64,000 nt of DNA from Marsupella aquatica (Eukaryota > Plantae > Marchantiophyta), in NCBI GenBank assembly GCA_973895155.1, contig OZ316899.1:7505241-7569240 (forward strand). The letters run 5' to 3'. The notes under the pieces were generated by a model. It worked only from the letters and a program-made list of their open reading frames with translations. It was not told the origin of the DNA and did not search any database. Position 1 is the first letter of the stretch. The number at the start of each line of letters is the position of its first letter. Below are positions 111 through 49,123 of this stretch, one piece after another. The position numbers and the translations under genes were made by a program.

Positions 111-114
111 TTTT

Positions 115-14046: not shown

Positions 14047-14064
14047 TGGCGCTAGATGGAGGGG
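14047..14064 (+). promoter_or_regulatory. PBS of element B (probable tRNA-Asn)
   Basis: TGGCGCTAGATGGAGGGG 4 nt after the LTR end. Confidence 0.8.
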
Positions 14065-14105
14065 GCATTCTTACTTATGAATTGTGTGCTACGCAGGGAT
14101 AGGTG

Positions 14106-17100: not shown

Positions 17101-17408
17101 ATTCAGAATACCAGGAAGTCCCGGCTGACAGCTACTTCGCAATTGAGGCCACCTTTTTGGAATCAATTATCATGGATAAAGAAACCAAATCACAGGTTCA
17201 AGTGGAGGAACTTGTTCTATCAAAGGATCCCAACGCCATGATGGTGGATTTTCATCAAGCGCTATGGCACAGTGGCCGGAGTCGGCAGCGCTGGTTGATG
17301 AAAAGGTCACTCCGATTACAAAGACTCACTCGGCAGACCAGGCAACTACATAGACAAATCAGGAGGCATTGCAGTCAATTTGAGAAGGGGTACCTGCTCT
17401 CACAATAA
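14106..17408 (+). pseudogene. gag: gag-protease of element B
   Basis: MNEFTPRE start homologous to A; three CCHC knuckles; PIDGGSG; stops and frameshifts. Confidence 0.9.
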
Positions 17409-20206
17409 ATAAGGTGAGTTTGGAGTCAATTGTTCCGAGCGGACTAAGGTGTCGGCCGGCTACTAAAAAATGAGGCTGAAGATGCTAAGGCTAAAAGGGA
17501 AGCCGAAGCCGAACTGATCTACTCCAGTGGAGATCAACACCATCATTGAAGAAGTTACTTCTTCCGGTGGGGAGTCAACAGCGGAGGTGATGGAAGCAAC
17601 CACGGAGCCCGAAATTCCAGTATATGGAGGAATGAGGTTGGACAGGTTGGAAGCAGACCTAGATCCAAATCTAAAGAAGCAAATCAACATGATTCAGTCA
17701 AAGCAATACAGGAAGCTTAAAGTGGGCGACGGTCGGGAGGTAAATCTGGGTAGGGATCTTGCTCCCAAAATCAAAAAGGAGATCAGTGAGTTACTAATGG
17801 AATACCAGGATGTTTTTGCTTGGAGTCACCTTGATTTACAAGGAGTGGACCCAAAATTGGGGAAGCATCGGATTGACCTTATGTTGGGAACCAAATCATT
17901 TCGGCAACCAATGAGGAGGATGAATCCAAAGTATTCATTGTTGGTAAAAGCAGAAATTAACAAGTTGGTAGAAGCCGGCTTCATTACACCAGTTCTCCAT
18001 TCGGACTGGGTGTCTCCTATCATCATTGTACCCAAGAAGGCATGACCGGATGGCAAGCCGAAGATAAGGGTTTGCCAGGATTATAGGAAGCTTAACGACG
18101 CCACTTTAAAGGATCACTTTCCTTTACCTTTTACTGATATGGTGTTAGACACTGTAGCCAGCCATGAGCTGTATTCTTTCATGGATGGCTACTCTGGATA
18201 TCAGAATAAGGCAGGAGGATCAGATCAAAACCGCCTTTATTACGGAGTGGGGAATTTATGTATTCAATCGGATGCCGTTTGGATTGTGTAATGCGCCAGC
18301 TATGTTCCAAAGGTTGATGGTTAACATATTTCACGACTACCTAAGGAAATTCCTGGAGATATTCATCGATGATTTTGCTGTGTTTGGGAAGGCGTCCAAA
18401 CATGCCAAGTACTTACGCAGAACCTTTGAAAGGTGCAGACAGGTGGGACTGAAGCTACATCCAGATAAATGTTTCTTTGGAGTAACTCAGGGGGTCCTGC
18501 TTGGTCACAAGGTGTCCAAGAAGGGTATCAAAATTGACAAGGGAAAATTAGCCGTGTGGCTCGATATCATGCAGCCCAAGAATATAAAAGATGTCAGATC
18601 TTTCTTGGGTTGTATTGGTTACTATCGAAGGTTTATCAAGGATTTTGCCAAGCTAGCACTTCCGTTAACCAACATGCTCAAAACAGGTTCAGATTTTGAA
18701 GCAACACCTGAACGGGTTACTGCGGTGGTACAGTTGAAGCAAAAGTTGGTTGAAGCACCCGTCATGATGGCGCCTGATTGGAATAAGGATTTTCATGTGT
18801 TTGTGGATGTTTCAGGGTTCTGCATCGGCTCCGTTCTAAGTCAGTTAGACGATAAGGGAAAAAACCACCCCATCTATTTTGCAAGCCGACAGTAGTTGTA
18901 GTTGTAGCCGAGCAGACTACACAACTATAGAGAGGGAGGCGCTGGGGTCATTTACTCATGTAAGAAGTTTTGACACTACTTATTAGGTTACCGGGTGATC
19001 TTTCATACAAATCATGAAAGTTTGAAGTACCTTGTAAACAAGCCGGATCTTACAGGACGAGTGGCCCGATGGATATTGCTATTGCAGGAATTCGATTATG
19101 AATTAAGGGTTAAACTGGGGAAGTTACATGCAAATGCAGATTTCTTCTCCAGGATACCCGGTGACCCGGCATCAGATTGCATTGACGACCGATTTCCGGA
19201 TGAGGAGTTATTTCAAGTCAAGGATTCGACTACTTGGTACTCAGAGATATTGGGATTTCTAAGTATAGCAAGGTTGAATAGGGCTTGGACCAGAGAACAA
19301 CAGGCGGTTTTCTTACGAAAGGCAGCTCGCTACCAGACCATTCATGGGGTGTTGCACAGGATGGGAGCATTTGGTAAGCTTCAGCGATGTTTGGAAAAAG
19401 ATGATGCCCGGAAAGCAATGGAAGCAATGCATGGAGAGGAGGCCGGAGGTCATTTTGCACCAGTAGTGACTACTCGCAAAATATTGGATGCCAGTTACTG
19501 GTGGCCAACTCTGCACAAGGATGTCCATAAATTCATTAGGGAATGTGATCCTTGCCAAAGGGCGGGGGGACCAAGGGCTGCCAGTAGACATCCACTGCAT
19601 CCAGTTTTACCCCTTACTGCATTTGAAAAGTGGGGGATCGATTACATTGGGCCTCTAAAGCCAAAAACTTATCCTCGGAGGAATAAGTACATCATCCTGG
19701 CCACTGATTATGCCACCAAATGGGTAGAGGCTAGGCCGACAATGAAGGATGATGCTGTTACAACTGCTCGATTTTTATACGAGCAGATTTTTACTCGGTA
19801 TGGGGCACCTCTAGAGCTGGTCAGTGATCGGGGGACTCATTTTTTGAATGATGTTGTCGGACGGCTTAATGAGCAATACTTGGTTCGGCATTGGCCTACA
19901 ACTCCCTACCATCCGAAGGCCAATGGACTTACCAAAAGAGCGAATGGAATCATTGGTAAGATACTAAATAAGACAGTATCAGAGCACAAGGATGATTGGG
20001 ATGATAAGCTGTACGCTGCTATTTTTGCTTATAATTTGGCCTACAAAACAACCACAGGACACACACCTTATTTCCTAACATTTGGGCAGGAGGTCTTGGT
20101 GCCAATAGAATTGGAAGTTCCCACATATCGTGTTACCATACGAGAACGTCTAAATGAGGCAGAGAGTAGGGAAGCAAGGTTGTACCAACTGGAGGGATTG
20201 GAGGAA
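17246..20206 (+). pseudogene. pol: pol of element B (RT, RNase H, C-terminally truncated integrase)
   Basis: FIDD catalytic motif, RNase H and integrase core. QLEGLEE is fused in frame to VEQRK of the LTR ORF at about 20207. Confidence 0.92.
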
Positions 20207-23200
20207 GTGGAGCAGAGGAAGATGTTGTCGGATGACCAGTTCAGGTCATTTCCAGGGCCTTCCACTAAGAATGGGTTCTTCAGGAATCAATGTACAAACT
20301 CGCATATAGGGCAGCTGATTGATTTCCTGAGCGTCACGTTGCATTGTACCTTGCCGAGAGCAGAAATCGGCAAAGCCCAAGTATTTTTGGTGGAGAATAT
20401 CGATTCAAGCCGAGACTACAATGGCTATCTCTTAATGCAGTTGAAGAAGGCATTGAATGAAGAGAAGTTGAGTATTGGGGAAGGAGCGGTATCCAGACTA
20501 GGGTACCATCTGCAATTACTTTGACAATATGCAAGAAGCCAGTTTTTTGCACCAGTGTTGCCTATACAGGAGCGGATGCCGATCACTACACCACTTGAGG
20601 AGATGGGGGAGGACGAGCAGTCCCTGAACAAGCGACGGCAAGAGAAGAAGTCGGCAATACAGGCAATCCAAGGATGGGAGAATTCCCCTCTCAAGGAACC
20701 AGAGGTGGTAACATATGATGTGGTGAGAAATCTGCTGCGACGGCCTACTCATAATAACCCATATGCAGGTATTCAACTGGTAGAGAGGAAGATGAATGCC
20801 GAAGAAAGAAAGAAATGAGATGAGCAAATGGATTCGAAGTCAAAAGGTGGAAGCCCAGGCTGAAGTCCGGAGAGGCCAGTCCTTAGAGCTTCTAGCCGAG
20901 GCTGAAGTCCACAGAGGCCAGTCCTTAGAGCTTCGAGCCGAGGCCGAAGTCCGGAGAGGCCAGTCCTTAGAGCTTCTAGCCCAGGCCGAAGTTTGGAGAG
21001 GCCAGTCCTTAGAGCTTCTAGCCGAGGCTGAAGTCCAGAGAGGCCAGTCCTTAGAGCTTCTAGCCGAGGCCAAAGTCCAGAGAGGCCAGTCCTTAGAGCT
21101 TCTAGCCGGGCCCGAGTGGAGGGACCGGTGGAGGTAAATCAACCAGTGGCAGCCCAACAATACTCAGAGGAGGAGATTGGGGGCTTTGCAGAAGAGGCCG
21201 GCATGCTCAGTAGTCAGGTTAATGTGGATGACTACGACGATGATTCTGTCGATCATGGGGAGAGACCGGTGCCGGGAGTGAGAACGTTGGGAAGGTTTTG
21301 TAGAAGACTTCCCTCAGTCTTTTATGGCAAGCCAGAGGATCAAAAAACCCCAGAGTCTCCTCCACCGGACGTGACACCATTGGAATTTGACCGAATGAAG
21401 GAAGCCGAGCCAGGTCTGAAGGAGAAACTCGACGAGTGGAGGGCCCGAAATGACATGCAGGAACGACAGCTACGAGGCGGTGATTGGCCGGAGGAAATAA
21501 GACGGCTTAGTGAGAAGCAGGTTGAACCTCTCACTGACTTTGATCAATTACGGGCAGAAGCCTGGGAGAAACGGCCTTGTTGGCAGATGCCAGTATCACC
21601 TGGCAAGTCAAAATATGCCAGGGATCGGGCTAGGGAGTATGGAGACATGTGTGGACTGCTAGCCTTAGAAATTTTCGGCAATGAGTTAGAATCCGGACCA
21701 TTTCTTAGAAAGGAAATGGCTCACCAAACAAGGTTGGAGGAGGCAATGACGTTGGAGCGATTAAAGAAAGAAGAGGTAATCGCTCGGCTTCGCTCCATGG
21801 AAGCCAAAGTTGCTAAGACAAAGTCTGATCAACCAACTTAGCAGGATCTCTTGGCTGAGCAACAGGAATTGGAAGTGGCGAACAACCAATTGGAAAACTA
21901 CCAGCAGATCAAGGAAAAATTGACGAAGGTAGAGCTGGAGTTAGCCGATTCAAAAGCAGAGGTACAGGGTCTAAATTGCCAAGTTGAGAGGCTCAGAAAG
22001 ATGGCTAAGGAGCAGGCCACCCAGAGCGAGAAGGCCTTGGTAGAAGCCCAAAGGAAGTATGACAAGTTACTCGACCGGTTGGAGGCCATGCGTGAGAAGC
22101 ATGAGGACGCCATTTGCACAGCGGCCAATGATCACCTAAGCCGAGTCCAACAGATACGCAAGGAGCTTCAGGAGGAGCTAATCAGGACAAAGCAGGCATG
22201 GATGGACGAGGTCATAAAGCTGGAAAGCATCAACGATTCCCAAAGAACCGCTTTGGATAAGTAGGAGTTTGAGATTGTGCAGATCTTAAACGAGGAGCTC
22301 AAGACGGCCAAAGAAGAGGCGCACCGGCTTAATGAGGAGGTTGAGGATTTATCCCAAGAGCTGGAGGAGGCCAAAGACAAGATGATCGGCTTGCAAAGGC
22401 ATGCAGATAATCAAACAGAGAAGTTGCAAAAGTATGCCGAAGCCAAGCACGAATCACCAACTGGACGGGCTCCCGCTAGTGGCGTGGTCGCCGGGAATAC
22501 TGAGGTGCCAAAGCCGACATCTATATTGTTAAGAGTAACTGGGGGTAAGGCAATACAGTTGGTTGCAGATCTGGCCAAAACATTCATGGGGCCAGTAGGT
22601 ACTTATGGGGTACCTCTCAAAGCCACGCCAGAAGAGGTTGAGAGTATGGCCGCCCACATTTGTGGGACTGTTGCTACAAAGGCAGCCGTGGTAGAGATAA
22701 GTAATGCCGATGAACTTGGAGCTGCGGTAACAGGTTCAGACACTGGTACAGCCACCATGGACTACCAGAATGTGAAGCCGTGGAAGATCAATACAGAACG
22801 TATTGGAGAGCAGGCTTGGATTGAGGAAGTGAAGGCCAACGCTATCCAAGCCGTTTCCCAAGAGGATGCCGATGCCGCTGCCGATGCCGGGGCCGACAAA
22901 CCAGAACCCAAAGTTAAAGGGATCAAGCCGGAGCCGATGGTAGGAGAAGGCGTAGAGTCAGAAGATTCGGGCTTACCCCCGATCATCTAACAATTAAGGA
23001 GGGCCAGTCATCGGTTGGAAGGAGGACGTGGCGGTAGGAGAAGGGCTTGGGCCAGAAGGGCGCGGCCGTTGTAGGATGGGATAGGGCAAGTAGCGCCCTG
23101 TCGGCTTAGGCAGTATTAGATGCTCGGTTCCCACAGGGTTTCGGGCTAGTCAAGTTTTTTAGGTGATAGTTTTTTTAGTTGGATTATTGCGGTGGAAGGC

Positions 23201-23888
23201 CGTGAGTTGTGGTTAGGATTTCCGCCTTTTCCCCTGAATGCGCTGCAAGGATAAAAACCTGGGCAGCGTGGCTCGGGGAGCTTTTTCTTAGTCAAGACTC
23301 TAGTGTAAAGTCAGTATTGCTAGCATACAGCTCTCGGCTAAATCTAGACCGCAGATTATCAGTAAACCACAAATTTCCATTTTTGTGCAATTGTTTGAAT
23401 TGAGTTGGCCTTGTTGCCTAGTTCGCAGATTCTTGCAATCATGGCGTTGTGTGTTGTGATACTTGTCACTTGATCAATTTGAGTCGGTTAGAGCGATATT
23501 GTGAAGCTATACGATCGCATTGTCTCGATTGGAGACTGCCAAACCAAACTCTGAGAGAAAAGTGAGGATTGAGAGTGTTTTGTTGGTTAAAGTGTGGGTT
23601 GAGTCGGTCTGAGAAAAACCTTTAGCCGGCTTAAGAGATTAAGCCGTAGAGGTACATTCTGGGGGCGGAATACAAACATACCCGACAAAGTCAATTGAGA
23701 ATTAGGTGTCACAGCAATGCACAATTAGCAAGCCCAGTGAAAGAATGGGTCCAGCATAGTGTGGATCGAGAGTAGATCGCATTTCCAAGCCAAATGGTAG
23801 CCAAACCACCATAAGCCGACCATAAGTAGGGGTTTATTGCCAGAGGCGGATGGTTCTTGGGGTTAGAGGTGTTGGGAAATGCGCCACA
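20207..23888 (+). repeat. 3' LTR of element B (5'-truncated); accessory ORF remnant 20207-22990
   Basis: Repeat of 10478-14042; ends GCGCCACA. Confidence 0.9.
20853..21110 (+). repeat. 42-bp tandem repeat, 6 copies
   Basis: Same unit as 11121-11253. Confidence 0.92.
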
Positions 23889-24904: not shown

Positions 24905-25214
24905 TAAAGGAATATTTTTTTTGTTAAGACCGGTATGGTTTTAACAACGAAATACCACTTTGGGGATAGTTCACTCTTGTAAAGGACGCCCTGAGTAATT
25001 TGGGATGAGAAACAAAGGATGCTTATGTTAGAATATATTTAACCCTTAGTCCATATGATGATACAAAGAGGTATGCAATACCTAGATATAAAGAGACACA
25101 AGACTAGGAGAGGGTAGTTACAACTACCCCAATGTACAATATAAGATAAGCCACATTGGCTTAAGAGAAATTCAATCATCTTTTGTTGGTGTATGTATAT
25201 TTCATAGTTTAACA

Positions 25215-25227
25215 CGTTATCAGCACA
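25215..25227 (+). promoter_or_regulatory. Bianca-type PBS (internal half of initiator tRNA-Met)
   Basis: CGTTATCAGCAC directly after the LTR; same motif on the minus strand at 58693-58705. Confidence 0.8.
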
Positions 25228-25372
25228 TGAATTTGCTCCTCCAACAACTCTCGAGCTACTCATAGGCCTCTTGTGAATTTTTTCCCTGTTCATGTGAACG
25301 AAGCATCGAACGAAATTCCCCAAGACACATTTCTTTTCTGTCGCCAAGTACACCACAAAAATTTTGTCGACT

Positions 25373-28300
25373 ATGACAACATTGGAGAAGCTCCAATTCC
25401 CATTGCTCGCAACAGATGGCGACAATTATTTATCTTGGGCACAGAATACAGAAATTGTTCTCAACATGAAAGGCCTCGGCGACATTATCTTAGCAGATAT
25501 CAATGGCACATTACAACAAAAGGCTCAGGCAATGTATATCATTCGCCATCACCTCTCTGCCAAACTACAACTTGAATACCTTACAGAGTTTAATCCCCAA
25601 GCCCTATGGGACGCTCTCAAATTGAGGTTCGACCATCTGCGTCTAATTTCCCTACCATCTGCACGAAATGAATGGATTCATTTACGAGTTCTAGACTACC
25701 CTACAATTGCCAAATTCAATAGCACCTTATTTCGGATAACTGCTCAGCTAACAGCCTGCGGCGAACCAATCGATGAAGCAGCAAAGATCGAGAAGACTCT
25801 TTCTACATTCTCGGCAGCAAACATGCAGTTATCGCAGATTTATAGACAACGCCATTTCACCCAATTCTCAGATTTGATTGCAGTCATGCTCCTGGCTGAA
25901 AAGAATGACCTCCTCCTTTTGAGGAACTCTCGCGAGTGACCACCAGGCACACTTCCTAAACCGGAAATACAATTCACGAATACCAATAGAGGTAATTGCT
26001 CTTACAATCGACCCCGTGGCCAATTTAAAGGCAATCCAAGTCGTTTTAATAAATTCCACAAGAGACAACAATTTCGCACAGACAAAGGCAAAATCTCCAA
26101 GCCTCCCATGAATTCTTGGTATCGTAACCCCAACCATATGTCAAATAAACCTACACAGAATTATCCCACAAATAATCAGCCCAAGTGTTTCCGTTGCGGT
26201 GGGACAGGGCATATCCAAAAGAATTGCAGAGTTCAAGCTCACCTAGTCAAACTATACCAGGCCACCCTCACAACATCCAACACCTTAACAGCCGCACATC
26301 ACTTGGAGATCGATGACGATCTCTCCAAATACACGCTTGCACCTCCCCCACCAGAGGTTCATATAGTATCACATGAAGTGAATGACACATCTCTCGCCGG
26401 TGCTGATATTTGCATTCTTGACAGCGGCACTTCTCACTCAATCCTAAAAGACAAATGTTATTTCCAGCACATATACCCATCAAATAGACCTGTGACTACT
26501 ATCACAGGTATAAACCAATTAGAGGAAGGCCATGGACCTGCCCAACTTACCCTTCCTCAAGGCACAACCATTAAAATTGCATCTGCCATATATGCCCCAC
26601 TCGCGACACGGAACTTACTAAGTTTCCATGATGTCCGCCAAAACAATCTCCATATACACTCTGCACCCGACAACCACATAAACTCTCTACAGATTTTTCG
26701 AGAAACTGCTAATGGCCCTATCACACTAGAGACATTACCACTCCATCCCCCCGGCGTTTATGCCACTAAGATCATGTCTTACAATTCCCAACGACAACAA
26801 TTATCCCCAACAGAATTATGGCATATCCACCTCGGCCACCCAGGCCCAGAGATGTACCATAAAATTATTAAGAACACCATTGGCATACCAAAAGGAGTAC
26901 ACCCATCCACAAAGTTAGACACTTGCATCCCCTGTGCACAAGGCAAATTTATCACTCATCCAGCTTCCACTAAGAACACCTATCAAATCCCTGACTTCCT
27001 CTCACAGATCAATGTGGACGTCTGCGGACCTATTGATCCACCGAGTGGACCATTTAGGTTTTTCCTAGTAATGATATGCTCCTCAACCAAATGGTCCTCT
27101 GTTTCTTTAATTTCCACAAGAAACCTTGTCTTTGCCAGACTGCTAACATAGCTTATACGTCTTCGCACTCAATTCCCTGACTCACCTACCAAAATAATTT
27201 GAATTGATAATGCTGGTGAATTTACATCACCAGCATTCGATGACTTCTGTCAAATCCTGGGCATCACAATTCAATACGTTTCCAGAATGGTACTGCAGAG
27301 GCATTAATAAAACGTTTACAGATGATCTCAAGACCTATGCTATTACAGACACAACTCCCACTTACAGCCTGGGGACATGCTATACTCCATGGCGATGCAC
27401 TACTGCGATATAGACCATCGGCTTTTAATATTTACACACCACACCAACTAGCATATGGCTCTATACCAGATATTACACACCTGAAAGTGTTTGGCTGCCT
27501 TGTTCTAGTACCCATTCTTGGCCCCAAGCACACCAAGATGGGACCACAGCGTTGACGTGGCATCTATGTTGGCTACGACTCTCCCTCGATAATAAGGTAT
27601 CTCGAACCCACCACTGCTGATGTGTTTCAAGCTTGATACCAGGACTGTAAATTCTGTGAAGAAATCTTCCCACCACTTCTAACTCCAACACAACTCTCCA
27701 AACAGCCTGTCTCAACACACACATTAGAATGGACAACAAAGGATCCATTCTGGAATGATCCTCGTACTCAATTGACAAACGATGAAGTGAAACGCATTCT
27801 GAATCTCCATCAAATTATGGAGAAAATACCTGACGCATTTAATGATGCTACAAATGTAACGAAATCACATATAGATGCAACCAATACTCCTGCAAGAATT
27901 CATATACCAGATACTCGAGCCACAGACCTCGCTCCCAAGGCTAAGCGAGGCAGACCTTCAGGTTCCAAAGACTCTAGACCACGGCAGAAGACACTTGTAT
28001 CAACACATTTATCCTTACAATTACCGCCAATCATACAGGATGAGAATGAAGAAATATCCATCCACTATATGCATACTGGACATTTATGGCATCAAAATTT
28101 AATTGAACCAGATGAGCATTTTGCTTTCCTTATATCCCAGGATATAACTAAAGATTTACCAGACCCTTGGACAATTAAAGAAGCACAACAACGACCAGAC
28201 TGGCCCAAATGGAACTCTGCTATTAACTCCGAGCTTGATTCTCTGATATCTCGCCAAGTTTTTGGAGAACTCCGAGTCGTCCCTGCTGCACAACACCTAA

Positions 28301-28626
28301 CTGGGTATAGGATTATATTGATACGCAAACATAATGCCGCAGGTGAAGTAATCCGCTACAAAGCCAGACTTGTGGCTAGAGGCTTACTCATTCACCGGTC
28401 ATGGACTCCATTACCTACCGATATCTGATTGCTTTTGCCCTCACACATCAAATTCGTATGCATCTTATGGACGTGGTAACTGCTTACCTTTACGGTATAC
28501 TTGATACTGACATACAAATGCAAGCTCCACCTGAATTAATTCAGAGGTAATTTTCCACATTAAGGGGGAGCATACAACCTCCCCAACCCCGGACCTAAAG
28601 TCGGGTATTGATAAGATTGTCCCTAC
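25373..28626 (+). pseudogene. gag-pol: gag-pol of element D, part 1 (gag, CCHC, protease, integrase, RT start)
   Basis: KAQAMYIIRHHL, CFRCGGTGHIQKNC, ILDSGTSH, WHIHLGHP, DVCGP, RYKARLVARG; several stops and indels. Confidence 0.93.
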
Positions 28627-29579
28627 TGTCGTATAGTGCTAAGTATCAAAAGTGACTCTCCTCACCTAAAACCAGGGTTTCGATCCCTTTAAGAACAGAT
28701 TTCAGAATGAATTGTATAACTTTTATCACTCCGAGTGATTTAGAGTCTTGAGCTCTATGTTGACTTCACTTCTCAATAAAAAAAATCGAATAAACAAACA
28801 ACAAAGTAACTGAACTTCTGATTTATGAATTAGAGAAGAAATGAGTAAGGATTTAGAGACTACAAGCTACTGCCACTCCTTCAGAAAGGATTTGGGCTCA
28901 GTATAGACATGAAATCTATCTCATAATTCATCCATCTCACTCTTCAAAACACAAAGGTTAATGATAATGGAATTCTCAATCTGATGAAGCAGAAGCTTTC
29001 TGATTGCAAATGAATGATATGATTTAAAATGCCGTCAACATGGTTTGACATCAGCGATACGCAATTCAGTCAAACTCTAAACCATATTCCAGAATCAAAG
29101 CAACAGTACTAACTACTCTGAGAATCAGAATTTACTTCTCATTTATCATTAACTATTCTTGAATTGGCTAGCGAATCCCGACTCTGCAAGCAAGCCTAGC
29201 AGTGAATTCAATACGAGTTTCAGAAATCTGCAACTGAATTCAATCACCACAGGAATCTCTTGAATTCAATCTTAACTTCAATCAATATAGCTTTACTTCC
29301 ATACAAAACACTCACAGCATGCCTTGTTACAATGGAAGGAGGAGAAAACTATTCAGAAGACTCAATTCTGAATACAGTATTAACTCTATTTCTCTCTACT
29401 TCAAATGAGCATTCTACTCTGTCTTATAAGTGCTGGAATCCTAAAATGGAGGAGGTAAGAACAGTCGTGCCTTTCCAAGCTTAAAACTAAACAAGGGAGA
29501 AGCACAGCATAAGTACTTCAACAAGGGTGGTAGAATACTACTTTACTAGTAATCTACTTCAAAAACTAAGTGTTGAGCG

Positions 29580-29845
29580 GACGCTGCTAGAAGCGTCGGG
29601 AGAATCTGGACGCTGCTAGAAGCGTCTTAAGTAAAACCAACGGACGCTGCTCACACTGCTCACAGCGTCAATACTAGGGTGGACGCTGCTCACAGCGTCG
29701 TGTGTTGAAGCTGACGCTTTCCACAGCGTCGGTCGAAATCCTCATAGAGTCTTGGTGGCGGTCGGGCACTGCCAAAAGCGTCATGAGGAGGTTGGACGCT
29801 TCCGCAGCGTCTTGAGTAAAAGAAACGGGCGCTGGTCACAGCGTC
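29580..29845. repeat. Array of ~8 palindromic GACGCT-N5/6-AGCGTC units with non-repeated spacers (duplicated at 34709-34974)
   Basis: Units start at 29580, 29609, 29643 (with a 9-bp internal duplication), 29682, 29713, 29765, 29795 and 29828. Confidence 0.9.
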
Positions 29846-30091
29846 GGGCAAAGTACACTAGGAATCGTCAGGAAAGCCGGAGATGTCAAATATTTCTATA
29901 AGTGTCCAGAACAAGTAAATGTTGGCCGGAAGGTGTCTAAAGTGTAAGTAAATCTTGTGATATGCTAAAAATAAACAAGTTTCCAGAAAAAATTGCAGGG
30001 ACACCCATACCACATAGCCCTCCACTTAAATTTCGCCGTGTCCCCACAAGACATGACCGAATTGAATCAGAAGCGAGTGACATGTTCTTCA

Positions 30092-30568
30092 TTAATAATA
30101 TTCTGGCTTAATAATCCAAGTAGTGCTCAAAATCATTGACGGGAGTTGGGAGATATCCGAATCCAGAATATAAAAATCGAGGTCATGGAATTCTTCTCCG
30201 ATCTGTATTGGGACTCCTTTAACTCTTCCCCAAAGATTAATGATTCGTCCATCGATTGATATCTGAGCAGATATCGGTTGTACTTCTTGATGAACAAATT
30301 GCTGGCACAGTCTGTGGGAGAGGAAATTAATTCGAGAGCCTGGATCAATAACAAAGTGTTGAATAGCATGTCCTCCCAGTTTGATCTTGCCTTCAAAGGA
30401 ATGTTGGAAAGCACGGGGTAAAGAATTCCAACAATCCATAGTAGCTTTGATGTCCCACATGAGCAGATAAATATCAATTCGAAGGAGAAAGAAGGAAACA
30501 ATTGCAGGATGCTGCAAAAGTAACGGCTTATATACATATAAATGACAACACCGTTTGATATCTCTCAT
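30092..30568 (-). CDS. Retropepsin-like aspartic protease domain ORF
   Basis: FVIDPGSRINFLS...GRVKGVPIQIG...LDFYIL...MILSTTW follows the retropepsin pattern; start codon uncertain. Confidence 0.65.
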   Translation of the reverse strand: MRDIKRCCHLYVYKPLLLQHPAIVSFFLLRIDIYLLMWDIKATMDCWNSLPRAFQHSFEGKIKLGGHAIQHFVIDPGSRINFLSHRLCQQFVHQEVQPISAQISIDGRIINLWGRVKGVPIQIGEEFHDLDFYILDSDISQLPSMILSTTWIIKPEYY

Positions 30569-30580
30569 AAATGGTGTCCT

Positions 30581-32473
30581 TCAAATCTGTGTCCTAGATA
30601 AAACACCTTGAATAATCACATCCGGATAAGAAGGAATAATAGGTAGGAACGCTAAACACCTAAGCGACTTGAACCCTTGGGAAGCCGGTAGCATACATTG
30701 TTTTGTAATCAACTGCTCCCTTAGCTTAACAAGCTTCTTCTCATATTTAATTGGAATAGCAAACCCACCAGGACAAACCCAAACATAGTATGGATAGGGC
30801 CATGGAATTTCCGGCACAAGGGGCGGAAATGGAGCTTGAGCTCGTCGAAGCATATACACCCAACACCAAATTTCGAACTCCGAAAACTTATGTCGTCTGT
30901 CCTTATCAATGGGAGGAACCGCCTTCCCAGGTTCATATGTGCGAATCAAACTACGAATCCTCGGATGGGATGTCATTGGCAAAATCTGCTGCTGCTGCAA
31001 AATGCTCTCCATCTCCAGATGTCGAAAAGCTACTCGAAAATGTTTCTTCTCCCACCTGTGAATTGAAGCCAAATTAGGGATAGGATTTCGGGGTGGCAAA
31101 TCCACTGTATGCCGAAGTCGAGGAGGTACTCTGATAATGCGAGGGTCTTCGTCTTCTTCTCCATCACTTGGTGCTCCTATCCAACGGAAAATTACATCTG
31201 GCATAGCGGAAGGAATCACTGACTCCTTAACTGGTCGAATTGGCAATGTAACAGGAGACGAAGGAGCAGAAGGTTCGGGCTCCAGTGGTTCAAATTCTTC
31301 TCTTGCAATAGTAGCTGGTTGATCTGCAATGGGATGCATTGGTACTAAAACAGGAAGTTCTTCTTTAAAATTATCGCTAGGTAAAGAGACTTCCTGGTTA
31401 GTTCGATCTGTCAAAAGTACAGGAAGGGGTAGCTCGTCTGTTCCGACAGGTGCTTCTCCCTGTTCAAAATCCTGGGAAGATGCTTCAGGAAAGATCTGTC
31501 GACTGATAGCATGGCGCAACCGTTTCCAAGATTTTCGAGTATACGTCACTGAAAACTCCTCCCGAATGTTTTTATCCTCGTTTGTAGCCAATGAAACTGG
31601 TGCTGAGCTGGTTGTCGAAGCGGGTGTCTCGGGTACCAATATGGGTACAGATATACCCATATTACCAGATACCTGATTGCGACTCGGAAAACCAGCAGAG
31701 CCTCCTTCAATCAACTCATCTTCAGGAGAAACCCATTTTACAGGCGGAAATGAAGGAGCTCCTATCGCGGCTATTGCCTCATCTAATTCCTTAGTTATAT
31801 CCAAAGGAATCGATATGAGTGAACCAGGTGTAGACCAGGCAGGGTATCTTGCGACAGATTGGGGAGAAGTCACTGGTTCACCTACTTCGTCTATATCCAC
31901 AATTGCATCCTCCGAATCAACTTTAACCAGCTTCACAATTTCTGAGCTTAATATTTCTGACTCCTGGACCAGAGGGATTTCACCTATATTTGGGCTAGAA
32001 CTAAGAGAGTCGGACGAATCATACTCCTGTAAAGCCTGCAAAGCATCACTATTTGCCTCTATGGGAACCAAAACAGGGGTAGAAGTAAATCCATCATACT
32101 CGTCCTCAGCAGTAGAATGTTGAAGAGGTTCCCCTGAAAAACCTTCTTCATCCACCCTCACCTCATCTTCAACATTCATCCGAGAAGCAGAATTATCCTG
32201 ATCAACATCATAAATAGGCTCGGCAGCACAAGGTGAACACGAGAGTCGAGGTGACATAGAATGCTCCAACCCTGTTGGCATTGCTGAAGGAACATCTTCG
32301 GCAACTTGAGCCTCTCTTGGTTGGTGAAGAATCGGATCGTCACTCCCTTCAGCTGATGCTCTTGTCTCTTTCAATTTCCGAACTTCACCCACCAGTTCAG
32401 GTTCCTCACAGTCGAGTATTGCACATAGCTCTACCACTGTGGAATTGGCTCGGACTTCTCGTACTTCAGGCAT
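30581..32473 (-). CDS. Acidic, Pro/Ser-rich accessory protein (630 aa); probably the C-terminal part of a longer disrupted ORF starting near 33024
   Basis: Long open frame. The upstream frame 33024-32431 is continuous apart from one TAG and overlaps its start in another frame. Confidence 0.7.
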   Translation of the reverse strand: MPEVREVRANSTVVELCAILDCEEPELVGEVRKLKETRASAEGSDDPILHQPREAQVAEDVPSAMPTGLEHSMSPRLSCSPCAAEPIYDVDQDNSASRMNVEDEVRVDEEGFSGEPLQHSTAEDEYDGFTSTPVLVPIEANSDALQALQEYDSSDSLSSSPNIGEIPLVQESEILSSEIVKLVKVDSEDAIVDIDEVGEPVTSPQSVARYPAWSTPGSLISIPLDITKELDEAIAAIGAPSFPPVKWVSPEDELIEGGSAGFPSRNQVSGNMGISVPILVPETPASTTSSAPVSLATNEDKNIREEFSVTYTRKSWKRLRHAISRQIFPEASSQDFEQGEAPVGTDELPLPVLLTDRTNQEVSLPSDNFKEELPVLVPMHPIADQPATIAREEFEPLEPEPSAPSSPVTLPIRPVKESVIPSAMPDVIFRWIGAPSDGEEDEDPRIIRVPPRLRHTVDLPPRNPIPNLASIHRWEKKHFRVAFRHLEMESILQQQQILPMTSHPRIRSLIRTYEPGKAVPPIDKDRRHKFSEFEIWCWVYMLRRAQAPFPPLVPEIPWPYPYYVWVCPGGFAIPIKYEKKLVKLREQLITKQCMLPASQGFKSLRCLAFLPIIPSYPDVIIQGVLSRTQI

Positions 32474-33024
32474 ATAATTTGCTTCACCGGTAGATGCTCT
32501 CTGATTGTTGCGATAAAATCTTTTTCCAAGACAAGCAGACAGTCATACTTATGGTAAATGTGAGCTAAATAAGGGGCCAAGTAGGTACACCTTATTTTCC
32601 CCGTTTTCAGCCTGCTACAAATTTTTTTGACCTGAGTATGAATTACTCGGTGCAAAACCTTCGTCCAATTGATAGACTGCGTCTGTTCTACATCCCTTGC
32701 ATGATTCCTCCCCCTTGCTATCCCGTAGCTAATACTTCCCTTCAGTGACCAGCCGAGATTCTAAAACCTCGTTTTCTCTGGTGCGTCCTTCAGGTTGAGA
32801 CGCGGAAAGGCACACCAGAAGCGTCGCGCACGTTGGTTCGTCACAGATTCCACCGGACGCTGCTCACAGCGTCCACTGGGATCGGACGCTACTCGAAGCG
32901 TCCTGACTTGCGGAATCTTCTGGGACGAATCGCATTGGACGCTCTTCGCGGCGTCCTTCCTTATCTCCTTTACGGTGGCGATTACTGGAACCGGGCGTTC
33001 CCCATAATCTCCGACTTCCTTCAC
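32431..33024 (-). pseudogene. N-terminal part of the element C accessory ORF
   Basis: DYGERPVP...F*NLGWSLKG...SINWTKVLHRVIHTQV...YLAPYLAHIY loosely resembles motifs of the A/B LTR ORF. Confidence 0.55.
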
Positions 33025-35148
33025 CCTGAAATTTCTTTACCACATGGTACGCTACACTAGGCCATCCTACTAATCAGACGTCTAACTCCTTCCTAATCTT
33101 CTACGCAATTCCTGGTGCATGATTCTTTCCGCTAACTCCCGAATGGAAATGACTAAATATCACTCCTGTGTGATCCTACCATTCAGCCTTAATATTACTA
33201 AATGCAAACTTTCATCTTCCCACCAGGTGATAGTTAACCAATGTATGCCATTCCTCCCTCTCAGGCTCAGAACCCAAGAATTAACATAACGATTCCTCAA
33301 ATTCCTAATTCTTAATGTTCCCAAAGATCGGATAGGTGGCATCGGTCACACGAACCAGGATGGTTGGACAATTTTACAAATCATACGTCCCGAGCAACGT
33401 TAGAATAACTTCACTTGTCACTCAAAGTGTCTTTGGTGTCTTCGACTATCTCCAAAGCAACTTGACGAGCAACAGCTCCTCTCTGTGAGGCCTTTTCTGG
33501 TGGGAGGGCGGTTTCTTCTCTTAAGTTTGGCACCACAAATTTTTCCAATACTCTTAAGAGAGCTTCCGGGGCGCTTTGGATAGAGTACGGCATCACCTCG
33601 AAATGGAAGCTCTTCATCTTTTTAACTGGAGTGATGACGCATCTTCACAATTATAGTAGAACGTGAATTCCTCTCCCGTCTAGCTCCTTCTGGCATACAC
33701 TGCCTGTACGTCAATTCAATCTTAAATTCGTTCCCCGGCAGCGGCGCCAAAAAGATGTCGTATAGTGCTAAGTATCAAAAGTGACTCTCCTCACCTAAAA
33801 CCAGGGTTTCGATCCCTTTAAGAACAGATTTCAGAATGAATTGTATAACTTTTATCACTCCGAGTGATTTAGAGTCTTGAGCTCTATGTTGACTTCACTT
33901 CTCAATAAAAAAAATCGAATAAACAAACAACAAAGTAACTGAACTTCTGATTTATGAATTAGAGAAGAAATGAGTAAGGATTTAGAGACTACAAGCTACT
34001 GCCACTCCTTCAGAAAGGATTTGGGCTCAGTATAGACATGAAATCTATCTCATAATTCATCCATCTCACTCTTCAAAACACAAAGGTTAATGATAATGGA
34101 ATTCTCAATCTGATGAAGCAGAAGCTTTCTGATTGCAAATGAATGATATGATTTAAAATGCCGTCAACATGGTTTGACATCAGCGATACGCAATTCAGTC
34201 AAACTCTAAACCATATTCCAGAATCAAAGCAACAGTACTAACTACTCTGAGAATCAGAATTTACTTCTCATTTATCATTAACTATTCTTGAATTGGCTAG
34301 CGAATCCCGACTCTGCAAGCAAGCCTAGCAGTGAATTCAATACGAGTTTCAGAAATCTGCAACTGAATTCAATCACCACAGGAATCTCTTGAATTCAATC
34401 TTAACTTCAATCAATATAGCTTTACTTCCATACAAAACACTCACAGCATGCCTTGTTACAATGGAAGGAGGAGAAAACTATTCAGAAGACTCAATTCTGA
34501 ATACAGTATTAACTCTATTTCTCTCTACTTCAAATGAGCATTCTACTCTGTCTTATAAGTGCTGGAATCCTAAAATGGAGGAGGTAAGAACAGTCGTGCC
34601 TTTCCAAGCTTAAAACTAAACAAGGGAGAAGCACAGCATAAGTACTTCAACAAGGGTGGTAGAATACTACTTTACTAGTAATCTACTTCAAAAACTAAGT
34701 GTTGAGCGGACGCTGCTAGAAGCGTCGGGAGAATCTGGACGCTGCTAGAAGCGTCTTAAGTAAAACCAACGGACGCTGCTCACACTGCTCACAGCGTCAA
34801 TACTAGGGTGGACGCTGCTCACAGCGTCGTGTGTTGAAGCTGACGCTTTCCACAGCGTCGGTCGAAATCCTCATAGAGTCTTGGTGGCGGTCGGGCACTG
34901 CCAAAAGCGTCATGAGGAGGTTGGACGCTTCCGCAGCGTCTTGAGTAAAAGAAACGGGCGCTGGTCACAGCGTCGGGCAAAGTACACTAGGAATCGTCAG
35001 GAAAGCCGGAGATGTCAAATATTTCTATAAGTGTCCAGAACAAGTAAATGTTGGCCGGAAGGTGTCTAAAGTGTAAGTAAATCTTGTGATATGCTAAAAA
35101 TAAACAAGTTTCCAGAAAAAATTGCAGGGACACCCATACCACACCTAC

Positions 35149-36520
35149 ACAGGACTTTAAGGACCACCTCATTCACTCAGGCCAGATGATACCTGCTGAA
35201 ATACATGACTCATCAGCGGTCCAAAATAAAAAGGCCCAGAAAATTGCTAATGGTGAACAATCAGCAGATTCACCATTGAATTATACTGACTTACTCACTG
35301 AGGTAAATCCTGTTCACCACAGAATCAATAAAGCCAAGAAACCAGAGAAAGCATTTGCTGTACAGGTTCTTAGGTCACTCTATGGTTTAAAGCAGAGTGG
35401 CCGCATCTGGTATAAGCGTTTCCGTGCTGAGATGCTTGCACTTGGTTTCGTGAATGAGGACATTGCTCCTTGCCTTTTTATCAAAAGAGATGGCATTGAG
35501 TTTATAATTATAGCAATATATGTCGACGACATTAACCTAATGGGTACTAAACTCATTATGGATCAAACCATTACCACACTTAAGAGCATATTCGAAATGA
35601 AGGATATTGGTCAACCTCTATTTTGTATTGGCATTCAATTCGAACATTTATCCAACGGTATTCTTATTCATCAATCTACATATACCAGAAAACTATTAAA
35701 ACAATTCAACATGGACAAAAGCTATCCAGTCACGACACCTATGGAAATTCGATCTTCAGACACATCCAGAGATCTGTATAAGCGCAGGACCAAACACGAA
35801 CCAATCTTGGGCCCAGAGAAACCTTACCTCTCTGCTATAGGAGCCTTGATGTACCTGGCGAATCAAACTCGCCCATACATCTCTTTCGCTGTTCACTTGC
35901 TTGCCCGCCACAGCTCCCAACCAACTATTAGACATTGGAATGGCATTAAGAGGATACTGCGCTACCTTCAAGGTACAATCGACACTAGCCTCTATTACCC
36001 TAAAGATGTGCCTAACGAATTGATTGGTTATGCAGATGCAGGTTACCTTACAGACCCCGATGATGCGAAATCCCAGACGGGATATGTATTTCTACAAGGA
36101 CATACAGCCATATCCTGGAAAAGTACCAAGCAGACTTTGACGACCACATCCTCCAACCACGCGGAAATCATAGCACTATACGAAGCCAGCCGAGAATGCC
36201 TGTGGCTTCGACAGCTTATCAATCACATCCAGTTGTCTACAGGCCATGCAATTCTTACCAAGCCTACTATCATCTACGAGGATAACAAGCCTTGTGTTGA
36301 TCAGATCGTTAAGGGCTTTATCAAGGGCGACCAAATCAAACATATTTCCCCCAAATTTTTCCACACGCATGAACAGCACGGGGACCAAATCAATGTTCAA
36401 TGGATACCTTCTAAAGATAATCGCGCTGACCTTTTTACGAAGCCCTTACCTCGCATTCTCCACGAAGTGCATTCGACTGGAATAGGCCTCCGTAGATTAT
36501 CGGACTTCACTGAAATCTGA
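35149..36520 (+). pseudogene. pol: pol of element D, part 2 (RT core, RNase H)
   Basis: SLYGLKQSGRIW, YVDD, GYADAGY, TSSNHAEIIA, IYEDN, ADLFTKPL. Confidence 0.95.
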
Positions 36521-37404
36521 CTTCCCCACCTCTTCCATAAATTTCTTATTCCATTGCGACACGACTGTGTTTCCCCCATGATACCTCCTCTGTTCTATGC
36601 ATATTCTACTGAACGTATGTTCTCCATACCCGAACATTTCGACACATCCTATCGAACACTCATTTCGATTCAGCCATACATGATTACACTCCTTTCTTAC
36701 TATTTTTGACTCATTACATGTAAGGTAGTGACACTCTTTTTACCCCAGAAGAAAGCGGGGGGTTTTTAATGAGGTCATACCCCAATGAGTTTTTCCATTA
36801 TACTCAGAACTAGGCTTAAATTTATTTCCAAAATGGTTACTTTAAGAAACATAAAGTAACCAAGGGGGAGTGTTAGAATATATTTAACCCTTAGTCCATA
36901 TGATGATACAAAGAGGTATGCAATACCTAGATATAAAGAGACACAAGACTAGGAGAGGGTAGTTACAACTACCCCAATGTACAATATAAGATAAGCCACA
37001 TTGGCTTAAGAGAAATTCAATCATCTTTTGTTGGTGTATGTATATTTCATAGTTTAACAGCTTATTCATTGTTGTTTTGCTGCCACAAACTTTACTCTAT
37101 ACGCCATTTTGTAACAAAGGATGCCCTAAACATGTTGCAAGACAACAACACTCACTCAAACACCAATACTAAACTTTTTTCTCAAAGAGATTGAGATAAT
37201 GCAGTACATCCTTGTTTAAGCACCAACAATTAATACTACAGAGCACCAGATAAAGTAAATCAAAAATATCTCTCAATCCATCCAAGCTTAATTTGAAGTT
37301 TATGCCTTGTGTTTCACCGTTATCATTGTTGAAGCATCACGTTCTAAGTAACGAGGAACATTTAAAAAGTACAATCCAATAGGAAGAATAATGTAAAGCG
37401 TGTT

Positions 37405-40076: not shown

Positions 40077-43000
40077 TGTGGTGCGTCCCATGGCTCCCTA
40101 AACCCAAGAAACCCCCCAGCTCAAGCCGATTCCCGCAGGTTTCGTGCTTGGCGAGGCCGTTTCCGCGGCTTAGCGGCATGGGACGCTGCTAACCTTCTAC
40201 TACTACTATTAACATTTTACACACATATACTGGACAGATCCTTCATCGGGTCATGAGATACGTAGCCGGCCTAATATAGGCCTTCCCCTGTCTTCCCCTG
40301 TCTTCCCCTCCGTCTTGTTAGGTATGTTTGGATTCCGCCGCCGGAATGATCCCCAATAGGCTTGGTTAAGCCGCTAAGACCTCTCTCAGCTCGACACATC
40401 CAACTCTCACTCCCCTGCTTACTTTCCTTCTTTCTGTTGATGTGGGCACTCTTCACACAAGTTAATGCGACACACAAATAGCAAAATGACTCATTCTGAC
40501 TGAGTCATACCATGCACTTGCCATACAAACAGTACATCTCATACACAAGTTCTGCGAACTAAGCCGTGAGGCCAACTCTATTCAGCTCTTAGGCATGAGG
40601 AAACATGAATATACACAAGGGTCACTGTATGACTAACCGAGAGCTTCTCGTACTACTTGATCCCAGCCCGGCTGATGCAAACTAAAAACTTGCTAAAGAA
40701 GAGGCCCTGAGCTCCCCGCTGCCCAGGTACTTATCCTGGTAGTGGATCCGCCATTCTTTGCATCGTAAGCCTAATCTACTTAACAGTAATCTACTTGCCC
40801 GAATCTACCTATGTACAGCAAGGCAGGAGCACAAGTGTTGCTCCTACCAGTGGGACCGCAATCCCACTAAGCTAAGTGTCAGGGCCGCTCCTGGTTCTGA
40901 TCCTAATCCTAAACGTGGAGATCCGTGCCCGCTCTGCCCACTCACGCCTCCTCCCTCCACGTCCGCCCTCCCTAAAAGGAACGGCGCCCTTGCACCGTCA
41001 CGACACCGGTGGTGGATCCTCAATGGACGCCCCCAACACTTCCTCCTCAGCCACTGCCGTTGGCCCGCCTACTGACAGATTACCTGCCCTTGACCGAGTC
41101 AACTCTCCCTCGGCCTGACTGGGTCCACCTTCGGCTTCAGCCTCGACACCGGCCTCGGCAATACCCACGGCTTCGGCTTCAGCCACCCCCACGGCTTCGG
41201 CTTCAGCCACTCCCTCGGCTTCGGCCTCCCCTTCCCCTAGGGTAGTTGGATCCTTAGCTGTGACCCTGTCTGGGGTCGGTGCCGGGTCTACCTCCTTGAT
41301 CACCACGGCCTGTGAAGTCGTATTACTCCTTGACCCTGAAGGTTTCCGCTTCTTCTTCGTTGGTGGCTCGGCAGCTGGTCCCTTCCCCTTCCCACTTACC
41401 TCCGGCACTGGTGCAGGTGGCGCGGCTTGTCCTTCGGCAATTACCACCCCTGGTAACTGGTTTGTCCCAACAGGAGATGGACCTGCTGCAGCTAAGCATT
41501 TAAATACTGCGGCTTGTTTCTTCAGCCGCTCTGTTTGGTTGTCGGCCCGCCGCTGTAGGTTCTCCATCTTCCTCGTGATTTCCTCCAACTCCTCTTGGGT
41601 TTCATCCAGGTCCTTACGTGCCCCCTCCAGCTCGTTTTTGGCCTCCTCCTGCTCCCTGTGGGCTTCCTCCAATTCCTTCTTCAAGGTAGCCTTCTCCTCC
41701 TGGGTTGCTCTTAGCTCCTTGTCGAGCTCTGCAATGATGACAGACTCCATCTGGTTCATCTTGGCGTAAGTCTGTTCGAGCATCTCGTCCTTCTCCCTTA
41801 GGTCGGCCTTGAAGCTGGCCGTCAGGGACGCAAGCTCCTGCTGCAGCGCCATAATCCCTTGATAGGATTTCCCTAACTCGACCTCCTTCTGCTCAAGGGC
41901 TCCGCGGATTTTCTCGAGCTCCCCTTTCAACGCCCATTCCTTTCTTTGGGTCTCCGCCATGGCCCGGCTGTTGGCTGTTATGTGGGCCTCCTCTGTATTC
42001 TTCAGCTCTTGCTTCCACTTTTCCCTTTCTTTGATCGTGTCGGCCAACTCTTCCTGCGTCTGAGTCAGTTTATCCTTGATATTCTGATTATCAGCCTGCG
42101 CGGCGTCCAACTGCCCCTGCATGATGTTCAGCTCATGTCGTTTAATCCGCAGTTCATCTTGGGCTTTCTTGGCCGCCCTTAGATCTTCAATCTCGGCTTC
42201 CATCCTCCTAAGCCGCCGAATGACCTCGTCCTTCTTGCTTCTCTCTAAAGCCACCGCTTCTTCTAATTGGTGCTTCTCCAACTGCTCCCTATGGAAAAAG
42301 GGTCCTACCTCCAACTCCTCTCCAAAGATGCCGAGCGCAAGTTCCCCACACATCTCACCATACTCCATGGCTCTATTCTTAGCGTAGGTGGAGTAAGTAG
42401 AAGTGATCGGCATCGCCCATCGTGGCCTCTGCTCCCAAGCCGTCCTGCGGATCTCTTCAATCGTGGCTAGAGGTTTGCTTCCTTTTTCGGCTAGCCGCCT
42501 GATGTCCTCCGGCCAATCTCCTCCTGGTAAATCCTTTTCCTTAGCCAGGGCGGCCTCTTCCTCCTGCTTGATTCGCTCCTGAAATTCCTGCACCGTCTAT
42601 TTTATGCCGTCGAAGCTCGGGGGAGCAACATCTGGTGGGGGAGACTCAGGGCTACTCTGCTGGTTGGGGTCCCCTCGCACTACCCTTGGAAGTGTGGGGA
42701 CAAACCGGCCACAGGTCCTTACTCCTGGAACGTGATGGTCCGACCCATAGCCGGAATTATCATGGCTGCAGTCCTCCACTGCCTCCTCTACCTCTTGGAT
42801 TTCCGGCTTCTCCCTCTCCTCTTCCTCGGTAGGAGCTTCAGGCAATTCTGCCTCAGATTCGGAGCTTGAGGTTCCCACGTACATTCGAACACCTGGCTTG
42901 GATTCCGGCCTGATTCTCTCGTCTCCAGCAAAGGGGTTTTCTCTTGTGAGCCGGTGTAGGCCTACCTCTGTAGTAGTGTCCTGCATGGTTGCCGTTGCCG

Positions 43001-44733: not shown

Positions 44734-45525
44734 TAGCTCCCCACTTAATTGTGAAGCGTCCTCGCGAACAACTTCATCTTCGTCCATATAGTATTTCTTG
44801 AGGCGGTCATAATGGATGCGAACTGGATATACCTCTCCCGTAATGTTGGCCAATTGCACGGAGCCATTGGGGAACATCATGGTTACTCTAAAGGGTCCTA
44901 ACCAGCGAGTGTAAAGCTTTCCTGGAAACCTACTATACCTACTGTCATAAAGTAGCACAAGATCACCGGTATGAATACTAACTACTTTTAACCTTTTATC
45001 ATACTGCTGCTTCATGATATTCTGTCTATATTCTACTCTCTCGGCTGAAATCATTCTCGCTTCCTCTAAAGCTTCTAACCTATATTCTCGCTCCTTTAGG
45101 CTCTCCTCCGCTGAGGCTCTTTCTTCAATTGTAACTTGAAATGTCGGTATCTCAAGTTGCATGGGTACCAGGGCTTCTTGTCCAAAGGTTAAGAAGAAGG
45201 GTGTATGACCGGTAGTGGATTTATAGGCAAGATTGTAAGCAAAAACAGCAGCAAACAATTTATCATCCCAATCGAGTTTGTTCTGAGCTACTGTTTTGTT
45301 CAATATCTTTCCTATGATTCCGTTTGCTCGTTCTGTCAACCCGTTTGCCTTTGGATGGTAGGGAGTAGTAGGCCTATGTTTAACTAAATACTGCTCATTT
45401 AAACGACTAATTATATCATTCAAAAAATGGGTTCCTCTATCACTAACTAATTCTAGGGGTGCTCCATACCTGGTGAAGATCTGCTCATACATGAATCTAG
45501 CCGTAGTAATTGCATCATCCTTCGT
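44722..45525 (-). pseudogene. C-terminal half of the element F integrase
   Basis: VSDRGTHF, GLTER, WLGPF; ends SGELCDA* overlapping the PPT and the first 12 nt of the LTR. Confidence 0.9.
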
Positions 45526-49054: not shown

Positions 49055-49123
49055 TACCTACGCTTCCGTTCTAACTTCATATCTCACGGCTTAAGAAATG
49101 CCCCCTCCATCTAGCGCCAAAAA

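Follow-up and report, generated by a model that had tools for sequence, protein, structure and literature searches.

Eight short, spaced palindromes stand in the U3 region of a long terminal repeat (LTR) from the liverwort Marsupella aquatica, and the question that they raise is what, if anything, recognises them. The locus lies in a 64,000-nucleotide stretch of contig OZ316899.1 (assembly GCA_973895155.1), which is referred to here as the window and in which positions are counted from the first letter. The original prediction, made from the letters of the window, took the palindromes to be binding sites for a dimeric protein, perhaps encoded by the element itself, by analogy to the VANC motif arrays of VANDAL transposons, and offered RNA hairpins as the alternative. 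In many plants, most of the genome consists of LTR retrotransposons. In the literature covered, VANDAL DNA transposons are the only ones for which sequence-specific anti-silencing is established. Two reports, in their available text, describe the extra ORFs found in LTR retrotransposons of plants as having no known function (PMC7264820; PMC11963269), and the available text of a 2026 paper states that the effect of Athila-lineage extra ORFs on methylation is still to be investigated (PMC12844716).

Results

A palindrome array in a young Athila-like element

The array is carried by an internally deleted, Athila-like Ty3/gypsy element on the minus strand (28627-35143; Table 1), which is young, its two LTRs being 100% identical. 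Its primer-binding site (PBS) is presumably of the Athila type, and no pol was found in the window copy. The insertion lies within a Ty1/copia element, in its RT region; the copia element is marked by an RVT_2 match at 35090-36517 and by copia gag and pre-integrase at 25298-27148. This host element (25026-36870), which we take to be Bianca-like, has 195-bp LTRs at 25026 and 36871 that are 99% alike. The studied element is present in high copy number, with a summed contig depth in run X1 of, as a rough figure, ~1,900 for the LTR and 700-900 for the internal part. Elsewhere in the window a direct repeat of 4.66 kb (40077-44733 and 49124-53780, 99.8%) covers an LTR and an accessory region, which suggests either two elements with a common LTR or a tandem duplication.

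A lone protease-like ORF sits just before the polypurine tract (PPT), a place where the autonomous relative described below (L001) has none. It reads DPG at the usual DT/SG site and is 54% identical to the database protein P0003 from the same Met; P0003 and the further protease-like relatives P0010, P0011 and P0016 also have non-standard motifs (DRG, DNG).

Table 1. Features of the studied element and their positions in the window
Feature	Position	Strand	Remark
Target-site duplication CCTAC	28622-28626 (left), 35144-35148 (right)		5 bp
3' LTR, 1,388 bp, TG...CA on the element strand	28627-30014	-	100% identical to 33756-35143
TATA-like CTTATAAG	29423-29430	-	585 bp into the LTR; copy at 34552-34559 in the 5' LTR; putative role
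Array of 8 spaced palindromes	29580-29845		U3 of the 3' LTR
Polypurine tract	30017-30027	-	from sequence
Retropepsin-like ORF, free-standing, 115 codons	30092-30439	-	Asp_protease_2, E 0.009
Accessory gene remnant	30581-32691	-	homology to the accessory family
Internal deletion junction, 6-bp overlap	32685-32690		from contigs of other copies
Second cluster, 4 units (2 exact)	32809-32955		leader, between leader ORF and deletion point
Small leader ORF of 86 codons, interrupted by one stop	33082-33342	-	conserved in L001
Primer-binding site	33731-33749	-	19 nt identical to the L001 PBS
5' LTR (promoter copy)	33756-35143	-	PBS next on the minus strand
Identical array of 8 palindromes	34709-34974		U3 of the 5' LTR; absent from the original prediction

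A relaxed scan of the U3 array resolved eight units, five of them exact matches to GACGCT-N5/6-AGCGTC, and bears out the earlier description of about eight units with a period of about 30 bp and spacers of mostly 11-16 bp. Unit starts lie 29-39 bp apart (52 in one case), with gaps between units of 11, 16, 12, 13, 34, 12 and 16 bp. The left arm is degenerate in two of the eight units (29765 and 29828), and in another the centre has grown to 15 bp by a 9-bp duplication (29643-29669). The array spans 170-435 bp from the LTR 5' end in both LTRs and lies upstream of the TATA-like box, both as originally placed; on the element strand CTTATAAG stands 150 bp downstream of it. Across the window GACGCT-N4-8-AGCGTC has 12 exact matches, all within the studied element, and each of 100 dinucleotide shuffles of the window gave none; the clustering of this motif in the element is not due to chance. 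The units were also rightly described as CpG-bearing in an AT-rich LTR: the 266-bp array holds 24 of the 40 CpGs of the LTR, at an observed/expected ratio of 1.14 compared with 0.41 in the remaining LTR, and its GC content is 0.56 compared with 0.36.

Comparing arms with centres and flanks, we obtained mean pairwise identities over 12 units of 0.85 and 0.97 for the two arms, against 0.48 for the nine 6-bp centres and 0.37 and 0.31 for the flanks. TRF found no tandem array in the window element, the 9-bp duplication being its only hit, and no helical phasing of the unit centres was found.

Variation among copies was taken from the contigs of four runs, with differences of 3% or more counted. 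Between 29300 and 30014, 23 substitution places are listed; the array accounts for one of them, compared with 8.6 expected from its length, and this one shifts an arm towards the consensus. Apart from this, copies differ within the array by indels of spacer or centre sequence, by lacking the 9-bp duplication and by skipping entire units, and at one contig end in run X5 both arms of a unit enclose a new centre. Given the linkage among substitution places, and because diverged arrays may escape alignment, the variant count is supportive and does not amount to a test.

Changes of this kind are also what would be left by neutral growth of the array through slippage or template switching in reverse transcription, the product persisting as the family is young. 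Centres are common to several units (one to units 1 and 2, another to units 3 and 4 and one inner unit), and the 9-bp duplication, the whole-unit skips and the identity of the LTRs fit as well. Such growth does not readily explain why the arms are kept while the spacers are unrelated, nor why the motif appears again 3 kb away in the leader, and we hold a purely neutral origin to be improbable.

The leader cluster and the internal deletion

The original prediction had placed three further units (32856-32873, 32885-32902 and 32938-32955) in coding sequence, inside the accessory ORF. The units are present, those at 32856 and 32885 exact and that at 32938 with one mismatch, and are joined by a fourth, degenerate unit at 32809-32825; the coding context did not hold. 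Homology with the accessory family reaches no further than 32691, the recognisable coding part of the remnant (2,111 bp) contains no half-site, and the frame through the inner units runs for 91 codons from stop to stop, lacks a Met and closes with a stop before the accessory homology begins. The inner units, 0.8-0.93 kb after the PBS, are therefore part of the leader and not of the accessory ORF. A reading of the inner region as one decayed gag-protease frame was ruled out by the accessory homology together with the deletion junction.

The present neighbourhood of these units was created by a deletion. Contigs of other copies diverge from the window sequence at 32685-32690, on both sides; records 6 and 7 of run X1 (depth 708 and 881) continue for 1,455 and 652 further bases past the junction, and loose contig ends at 32690 occur in runs X3 and X5 as well, making three studies in total. 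At least about 2 kb has been lost from the window copy, including most of the domain described below as VANC-like, and the inner units were thereby placed beside the accessory gene. By comparison with L001, gag-pol was probably lost in the same deletion.

Upstream of the inner units lies a small leader ORF that aligns to its L001 counterpart with 34 of 79 residues identical (score 189, compared with at most 59 in 2,000 shuffles), 20 of these 34 residues being written with a different codon. It is Arg-rich, 79-86 codons long and situated between PBS and gag (7711-7950 in L001), and the differences between these two ORFs of distant families are mostly synonymous. It matched no Pfam family, and a homologue search gave nothing convincing beyond L001. 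The motif cluster comes after the leader ORF in both elements.

In the genomic RNA the units, close to the 3' end and within the leader, could act as hairpins, in packaging, in dimerisation or as a source of small RNA. Packaging signals usually lie in the leader, and strong folding of the sense strand is indeed seen, with z of -5.8 and -3.5 relative to dinucleotide shuffles. Palindromes of maize Sireviruses form hairpins and are siRNA hotspots, according to the available text of PMC4728375. When the spacers alone are shuffled, folding is equally strong (-109.3 for the array compared with -112.5 +/- 3.7 kcal/mol, 237 of 300 shuffles being as good), so that the folding of the array is what the units give by themselves. 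In each of the four degenerate units the sense strand has an A-C mismatch, uncompensated in every case, and the overlapping AGCGCT motif of L001 cannot close such a stem. No family was matched in an Rfam search, and a tRNA search likewise found none. With folding no stronger than in spacer-shuffled arrays and degenerate units uncompensated, the hairpin alternative of the original prediction finds little support, and we regard it as very improbable.

Private motifs in related families

A protein search of 1.84 billion representatives returned 16 proteins, of which 11 besides P0013 match the accessory protein as a whole or its C-terminal domain and four match the protease-like ORF. L001 is the one locus obtained from 58 candidate stretches of metagenome contigs found with a broad query; close relatives of the studied element were found neither in metagenome contigs nor among 72 viral contigs. 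The motif was also scanned for in viral contigs; all of the 85 loci obtained had a single unit and lacked similarity to the element, and they were taken as chance matches.

L001 is autonomous, with gag, PR-RT-RH-IN, one LTR, the leader ORF and a sense-oriented accessory gene lying after pol and before the PPT. Its gag, RT, RH and IN were identified by Pfam scan and translation, which revealed no chromodomain and no extra archaeal RNase H. The contig (1-10852), which contains a single LTR and overlaps itself by 123 bp at its ends, is either a collapsed repeat or a one-LTR circle.

The two LTRs can be aligned at the 3' end only (65% over 125 nt), and the CTTATAAG 8-mer occurs once in the L001 LTR, at a different offset. 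The motif of L001 is AGCGCT, sharing the AGCG core with the window family, and it clusters 165-235 bp into U3 and immediately behind the leader ORF, both of them positions that are also occupied in the window element. Further clusters lie in a pol linker, before the accessory gene and inside it. The AGCG/CGCT core reaches 10 sites each in U3, leader and pol linker, and 7 per 100 bp inside the accessory gene, values attained by none of 1,000 shuffles; the cluster preceding that gene is weak (39 and 12 of 1,000). By the same test the window element is strong in the LTR (0 of 1,000) and weak in the leader (133 and 14 of 1,000). CpG observed/expected ratios in L001 are mostly 0-0.25 in gag-pol compared with 0.6-1.3 at the clusters. 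Two of the clusters are in coding linkers (637-700 and 5070-5130), and short 8-bp tandem runs are also present. One motif occurring in such unrelated contexts, coding linkers included, points to recognition at the level of DNA. The shared placement in spite of LTRs alignable at one end only, and the retention of CpGs at clusters against an element-wide loss, count further against a neutral origin.

Each family has a motif of its own. AGCGTC occurs 3.9 times per kb in the window element compared with 0-0.44 in seven other stretches, AGCGCT 1.3 times in L001 compared with 0-0.2 elsewhere, and AAGCCG 2.7-3.3 times in three further gypsy copies of the window (A, B and C: 111-10300, 14043-23888 and 40077-49530) compared with 0.09-0.58 elsewhere. 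Against a second-order background these are the top hexamers of their elements, with 20 sites for 1.4 expected in the window element, 14 for 1.7 in L001, and 31, 30 and 27 for 7.2, 7.0 and 5.6 in A, B and C, whereas two copia-type control stretches have no outlier above z 3.8. Against a third-order background the enrichments drop to z 4.2-4.8, compared with 3.3-5.7 on small counts in the controls, and AGCGCT falls out of the top five of L001.

The PBS of A, B and C differs from that of the studied element, and they carry a long accessory ORF with an N-domain and coiled coils. Their N-domain is probably related to that of the accessory family, the homology being weak (HH probability 44%, E 2e-4). 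AAGCCG is dispersed, with 10 of the 18 sites in the accessory ORF of B in one frame. A, B and C are mutually related. There are at best three independent pairs of protein and motif.

The layout of the array is that of the Sirevirus boxes, the nearest architecture so far described and one that the original prediction did not name, which the available text of PMC2829016 describes as CG-rich palindromes in at least eight copies, starting 200-400 bp into the LTR and upstream of TATA, with extra copies of the repeated motifs inside the element, and the available text of PMC4728375 adds that the arms are more conserved than the centre. The studied element likewise has about eight CpG-rich palindromes per LTR in the upstream half before a TATA-like box, arms better conserved than the centre, unit-sized indels and inner copies. 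It differs in being gypsy and not copia, with a PBS not of the tRNA-Met type; in its core, which is CGCT/AGCG around a 6-bp centre where Sireviruses have CGG-CCG; and in the inner copies, which stand in the 5' leader of the window element. Sireviruses also have copies upstream of the 3' extra ORF, a region that is deleted in the window element and holds the weak cluster of L001.

The boxes could accordingly be an enhancer for a dimeric transcription factor of the host, as may be the case in Sireviruses, the accessory protein having another job. Their position and form match the Sirevirus boxes (available text of PMC2829016 and PMC4728375), and an AGCG core common to the distant L001 is what would be expected of a host factor's site. 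A host factor would have to serve three families with three near-exclusive motifs, two of them within one genome, as well as clusters deep in the pol and accessory gene of L001, far from the promoter, and it leaves the VANC21-like fold described below unexplained. We consider an enhancer of this type rather unlikely.

The accessory protein and its predicted fold

The accessory protein consists of an N-terminal domain, an acidic and Pro-rich linker with a short conserved helix, and a C-terminal domain. The window remnant keeps the last ~65 residues of the N-terminal domain, the linker and the conserved C-terminal domain of ~190 residues; a frame break near 32500 looks private to this copy. The accessory protein of L001 is 33% identical to P0002 over 149 residues, and P0002 is 49% identical to the window remnant over 68 residues (32691-32500) and, at the C-terminal domain, 53% over 236, so that the N-terminal domain belongs to the family of the window element.

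Most of this domain having been lost from the window copy, the protein folded was that of L001. Its N-domain was modelled from a nine-row alignment; of five models (pLDDT 73.7, 67.3, 38.7, 35.0 and 34.6) two are confident, and the best, with a mean pLDDT of 73.7, was used for comparison. In a Foldseek-independent search of 48,161 PDB representatives, the VANC21-DNA complex 9lnk came first (Z 6.4, rmsd 4.4, 180 of 224 residues aligned) and stood alone at Z>=5, the runner-up having Z 3.1 over 54 residues. In a second comparison 9lnj (Z 7.0, rmsd 4.6, 187 aligned) was alone of 216 at Z>=2. Foldseek gave VANC21-DNA a TM of 0.47, compared with at most 0.19 for the other rows listed.

Several figures weigh against a VANC-type reading. 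The tool's marks for a sure match are Z 8, or 13 for helical folds, and Z 6.4-7.0 falls below both; Foldseek of the model against the PDB gave no match at E 0.001 (VANC21 E 3.3), and the identity to VANC21 is 8-10%. A profile search of PDB sequences with the N-domain did not return VANC21 at E up to 10, and the model had no match in BFVD at E 0.001. The middling Z gains its weight from the cover of the whole domain, from the gap to the next row and from the fact that VANC had been named as the hypothesis before the fold search. On these grounds we predict a VANC21-like fold for the N-terminal domain, which suggests a role in chromatin or DNA binding. The fold is silent on the direction of the effect, since VANC is reported to share its structure with the host silencing factor MAIN (available text of PMC13547354).

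At the sequence level the N-domain matches no Pfam family above cut-off, including PF10536. P0002 reaches E 0.014 to PF20167 (Transposase_32), below the cut-off, with an Atlas value of 0.89 to the PF20167 and PF03078 clusters, and the N-domain is thus weakly like Transposase_32/ATHILA.

The C-terminal domain, modelled with a pLDDT of about 90 over residues 71-210, had no PDB match by Foldseek, a best Z of 2.5 with VIA and no usable Atlas hit, and may be regarded as a second candidate binder. Encoded at 30623-31150 (minus strand), it carries the pattern W.WVY..RR..PFP..WP..W..PDG and is found in ~10 database proteins.

Discussion

Palindromes at the promoter and an accessory protein with a predicted VANC21-like domain, taken together, make the palindromes likely landing sites that shield the element from silencing. 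That the binder is the family's own VANC-fold protein, made by intact copies and probably acting against silencing, is a reading to which we give about an even chance. The element-encoded binder that the original prediction proposed by analogy to VANC has gained from the predicted fold and from the private CG motifs; the part of the argument that placed the inner units within the accessory ORF has fallen away.

In the proposed mechanism, intact copies would produce the VANC-fold accessory protein and supply it in trans. The protein would bind its family's motif, both in the leader and at the LTR promoter, perhaps as a dimer on the inverted half-sites, although the L001 motif is built differently. 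Binding would likely keep the CpG-rich spots open and the family active, the effect being more probably a loss of silencing than plain activation. Deleted copies would keep their sites and be served in trans, and motif and protein would be expected to diverge together between families.

In the available text of PMC5735166, VANC21 and VANC6 bind family-specific motifs that have accumulated in non-coding regions. The studied system is alike in two ways: the element family encodes an accessory protein with a domain that is predicted, from the L001 model, to be VANC21-like (PDB 9lnj and 9lnk), and its short family-specific motif forms clusters in non-coding control regions and changes from one related family to another. 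Its carrier, however, is a Ty3/gypsy element with LTRs, PBS and PPT, whereas VANDAL elements are MULEs; the accessory family has no sequence-level match to VANC21 and possesses an extra C-terminal domain of no matched fold. As reported, the VANC motif is a tandem, non-palindromic 8-9-mer without CpG, in contrast to the CpG-bearing, spaced palindrome with unique spacers found here, and this difference, like the lack of a tandem array in the window element, speaks against a VANC-type reading. So does the change of motif geometry between the window family (CGCT-N6-AGCG) and L001 (overlapping AGCGCT). The element belongs neither to the VANC/VANDAL system nor to the Sireviruses; its layout is that of the Sireviruses, and it may function like VANC/VANDAL.

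Two further groups share features with it. Athila/OTA elements carry a 3' sense extra ORF (available text of PMC6317226), and Transposase_32 occurs in sunflower Athila 14 (available text of PMC11728184). L001 shares the non-chromovirus gypsy order, the single RNase H and the extra ORF located after pol and before the 3' LTR, and the accessory protein has the weak Transposase_32/ATHILA likeness noted above, below Pfam cut-offs; the small conserved leader ORF and the lone protease-like ORF before the PPT are unlike Athila/OTA. Plant mobile domains (PMDs) are reported to share structure with VANC and are carried by gypsy elements, and an anti-silencing use has been speculated for MULE-borne PMDs (available text of PMC5418596 and PMC13547354). 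Unlike MAIN/MAIL1 and PMD-A, the accessory family has no PF10536 match, and the PMD literature covered, in its available text, reports no cognate DNA motif; for Sirevirus boxes, the corresponding text names no known binder.

Separately, the components have been described before: palindrome arrays in LTRs for Sirevirus, VANC systems for VANDAL, and extra ORFs of unknown function for gypsy elements. A VANC-like fold in the extra ORF of an LTR retrotransposon, together with a cognate motif, was not found in the literature covered, which did not extend to Sasaki 2022 or to the VANC21 structure (doi 10.1266/ggs.25-00096). With candidates for both the protein and its 18-bp target in one element and a second such pair in a relative, the question is directly testable, and new protein-motif pairs would be tools for targeted demethylation.

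More broadly, and as a tentative proposal that we place somewhat short of even, Athila-like elements may run a VANC-type system of their own, in which the 3' extra ORF would encode an anti-silencer that binds DNA sequence-specifically, CpG-bearing target arrays would be specific to each family and deleted copies would ride along. If true, this would give a function to the long-unexplained 3' extra ORF of Athila-like elements, and the same logic could explain the palindromes of Sireviruses and the 'env-like' ORFs of plant retrotransposons.
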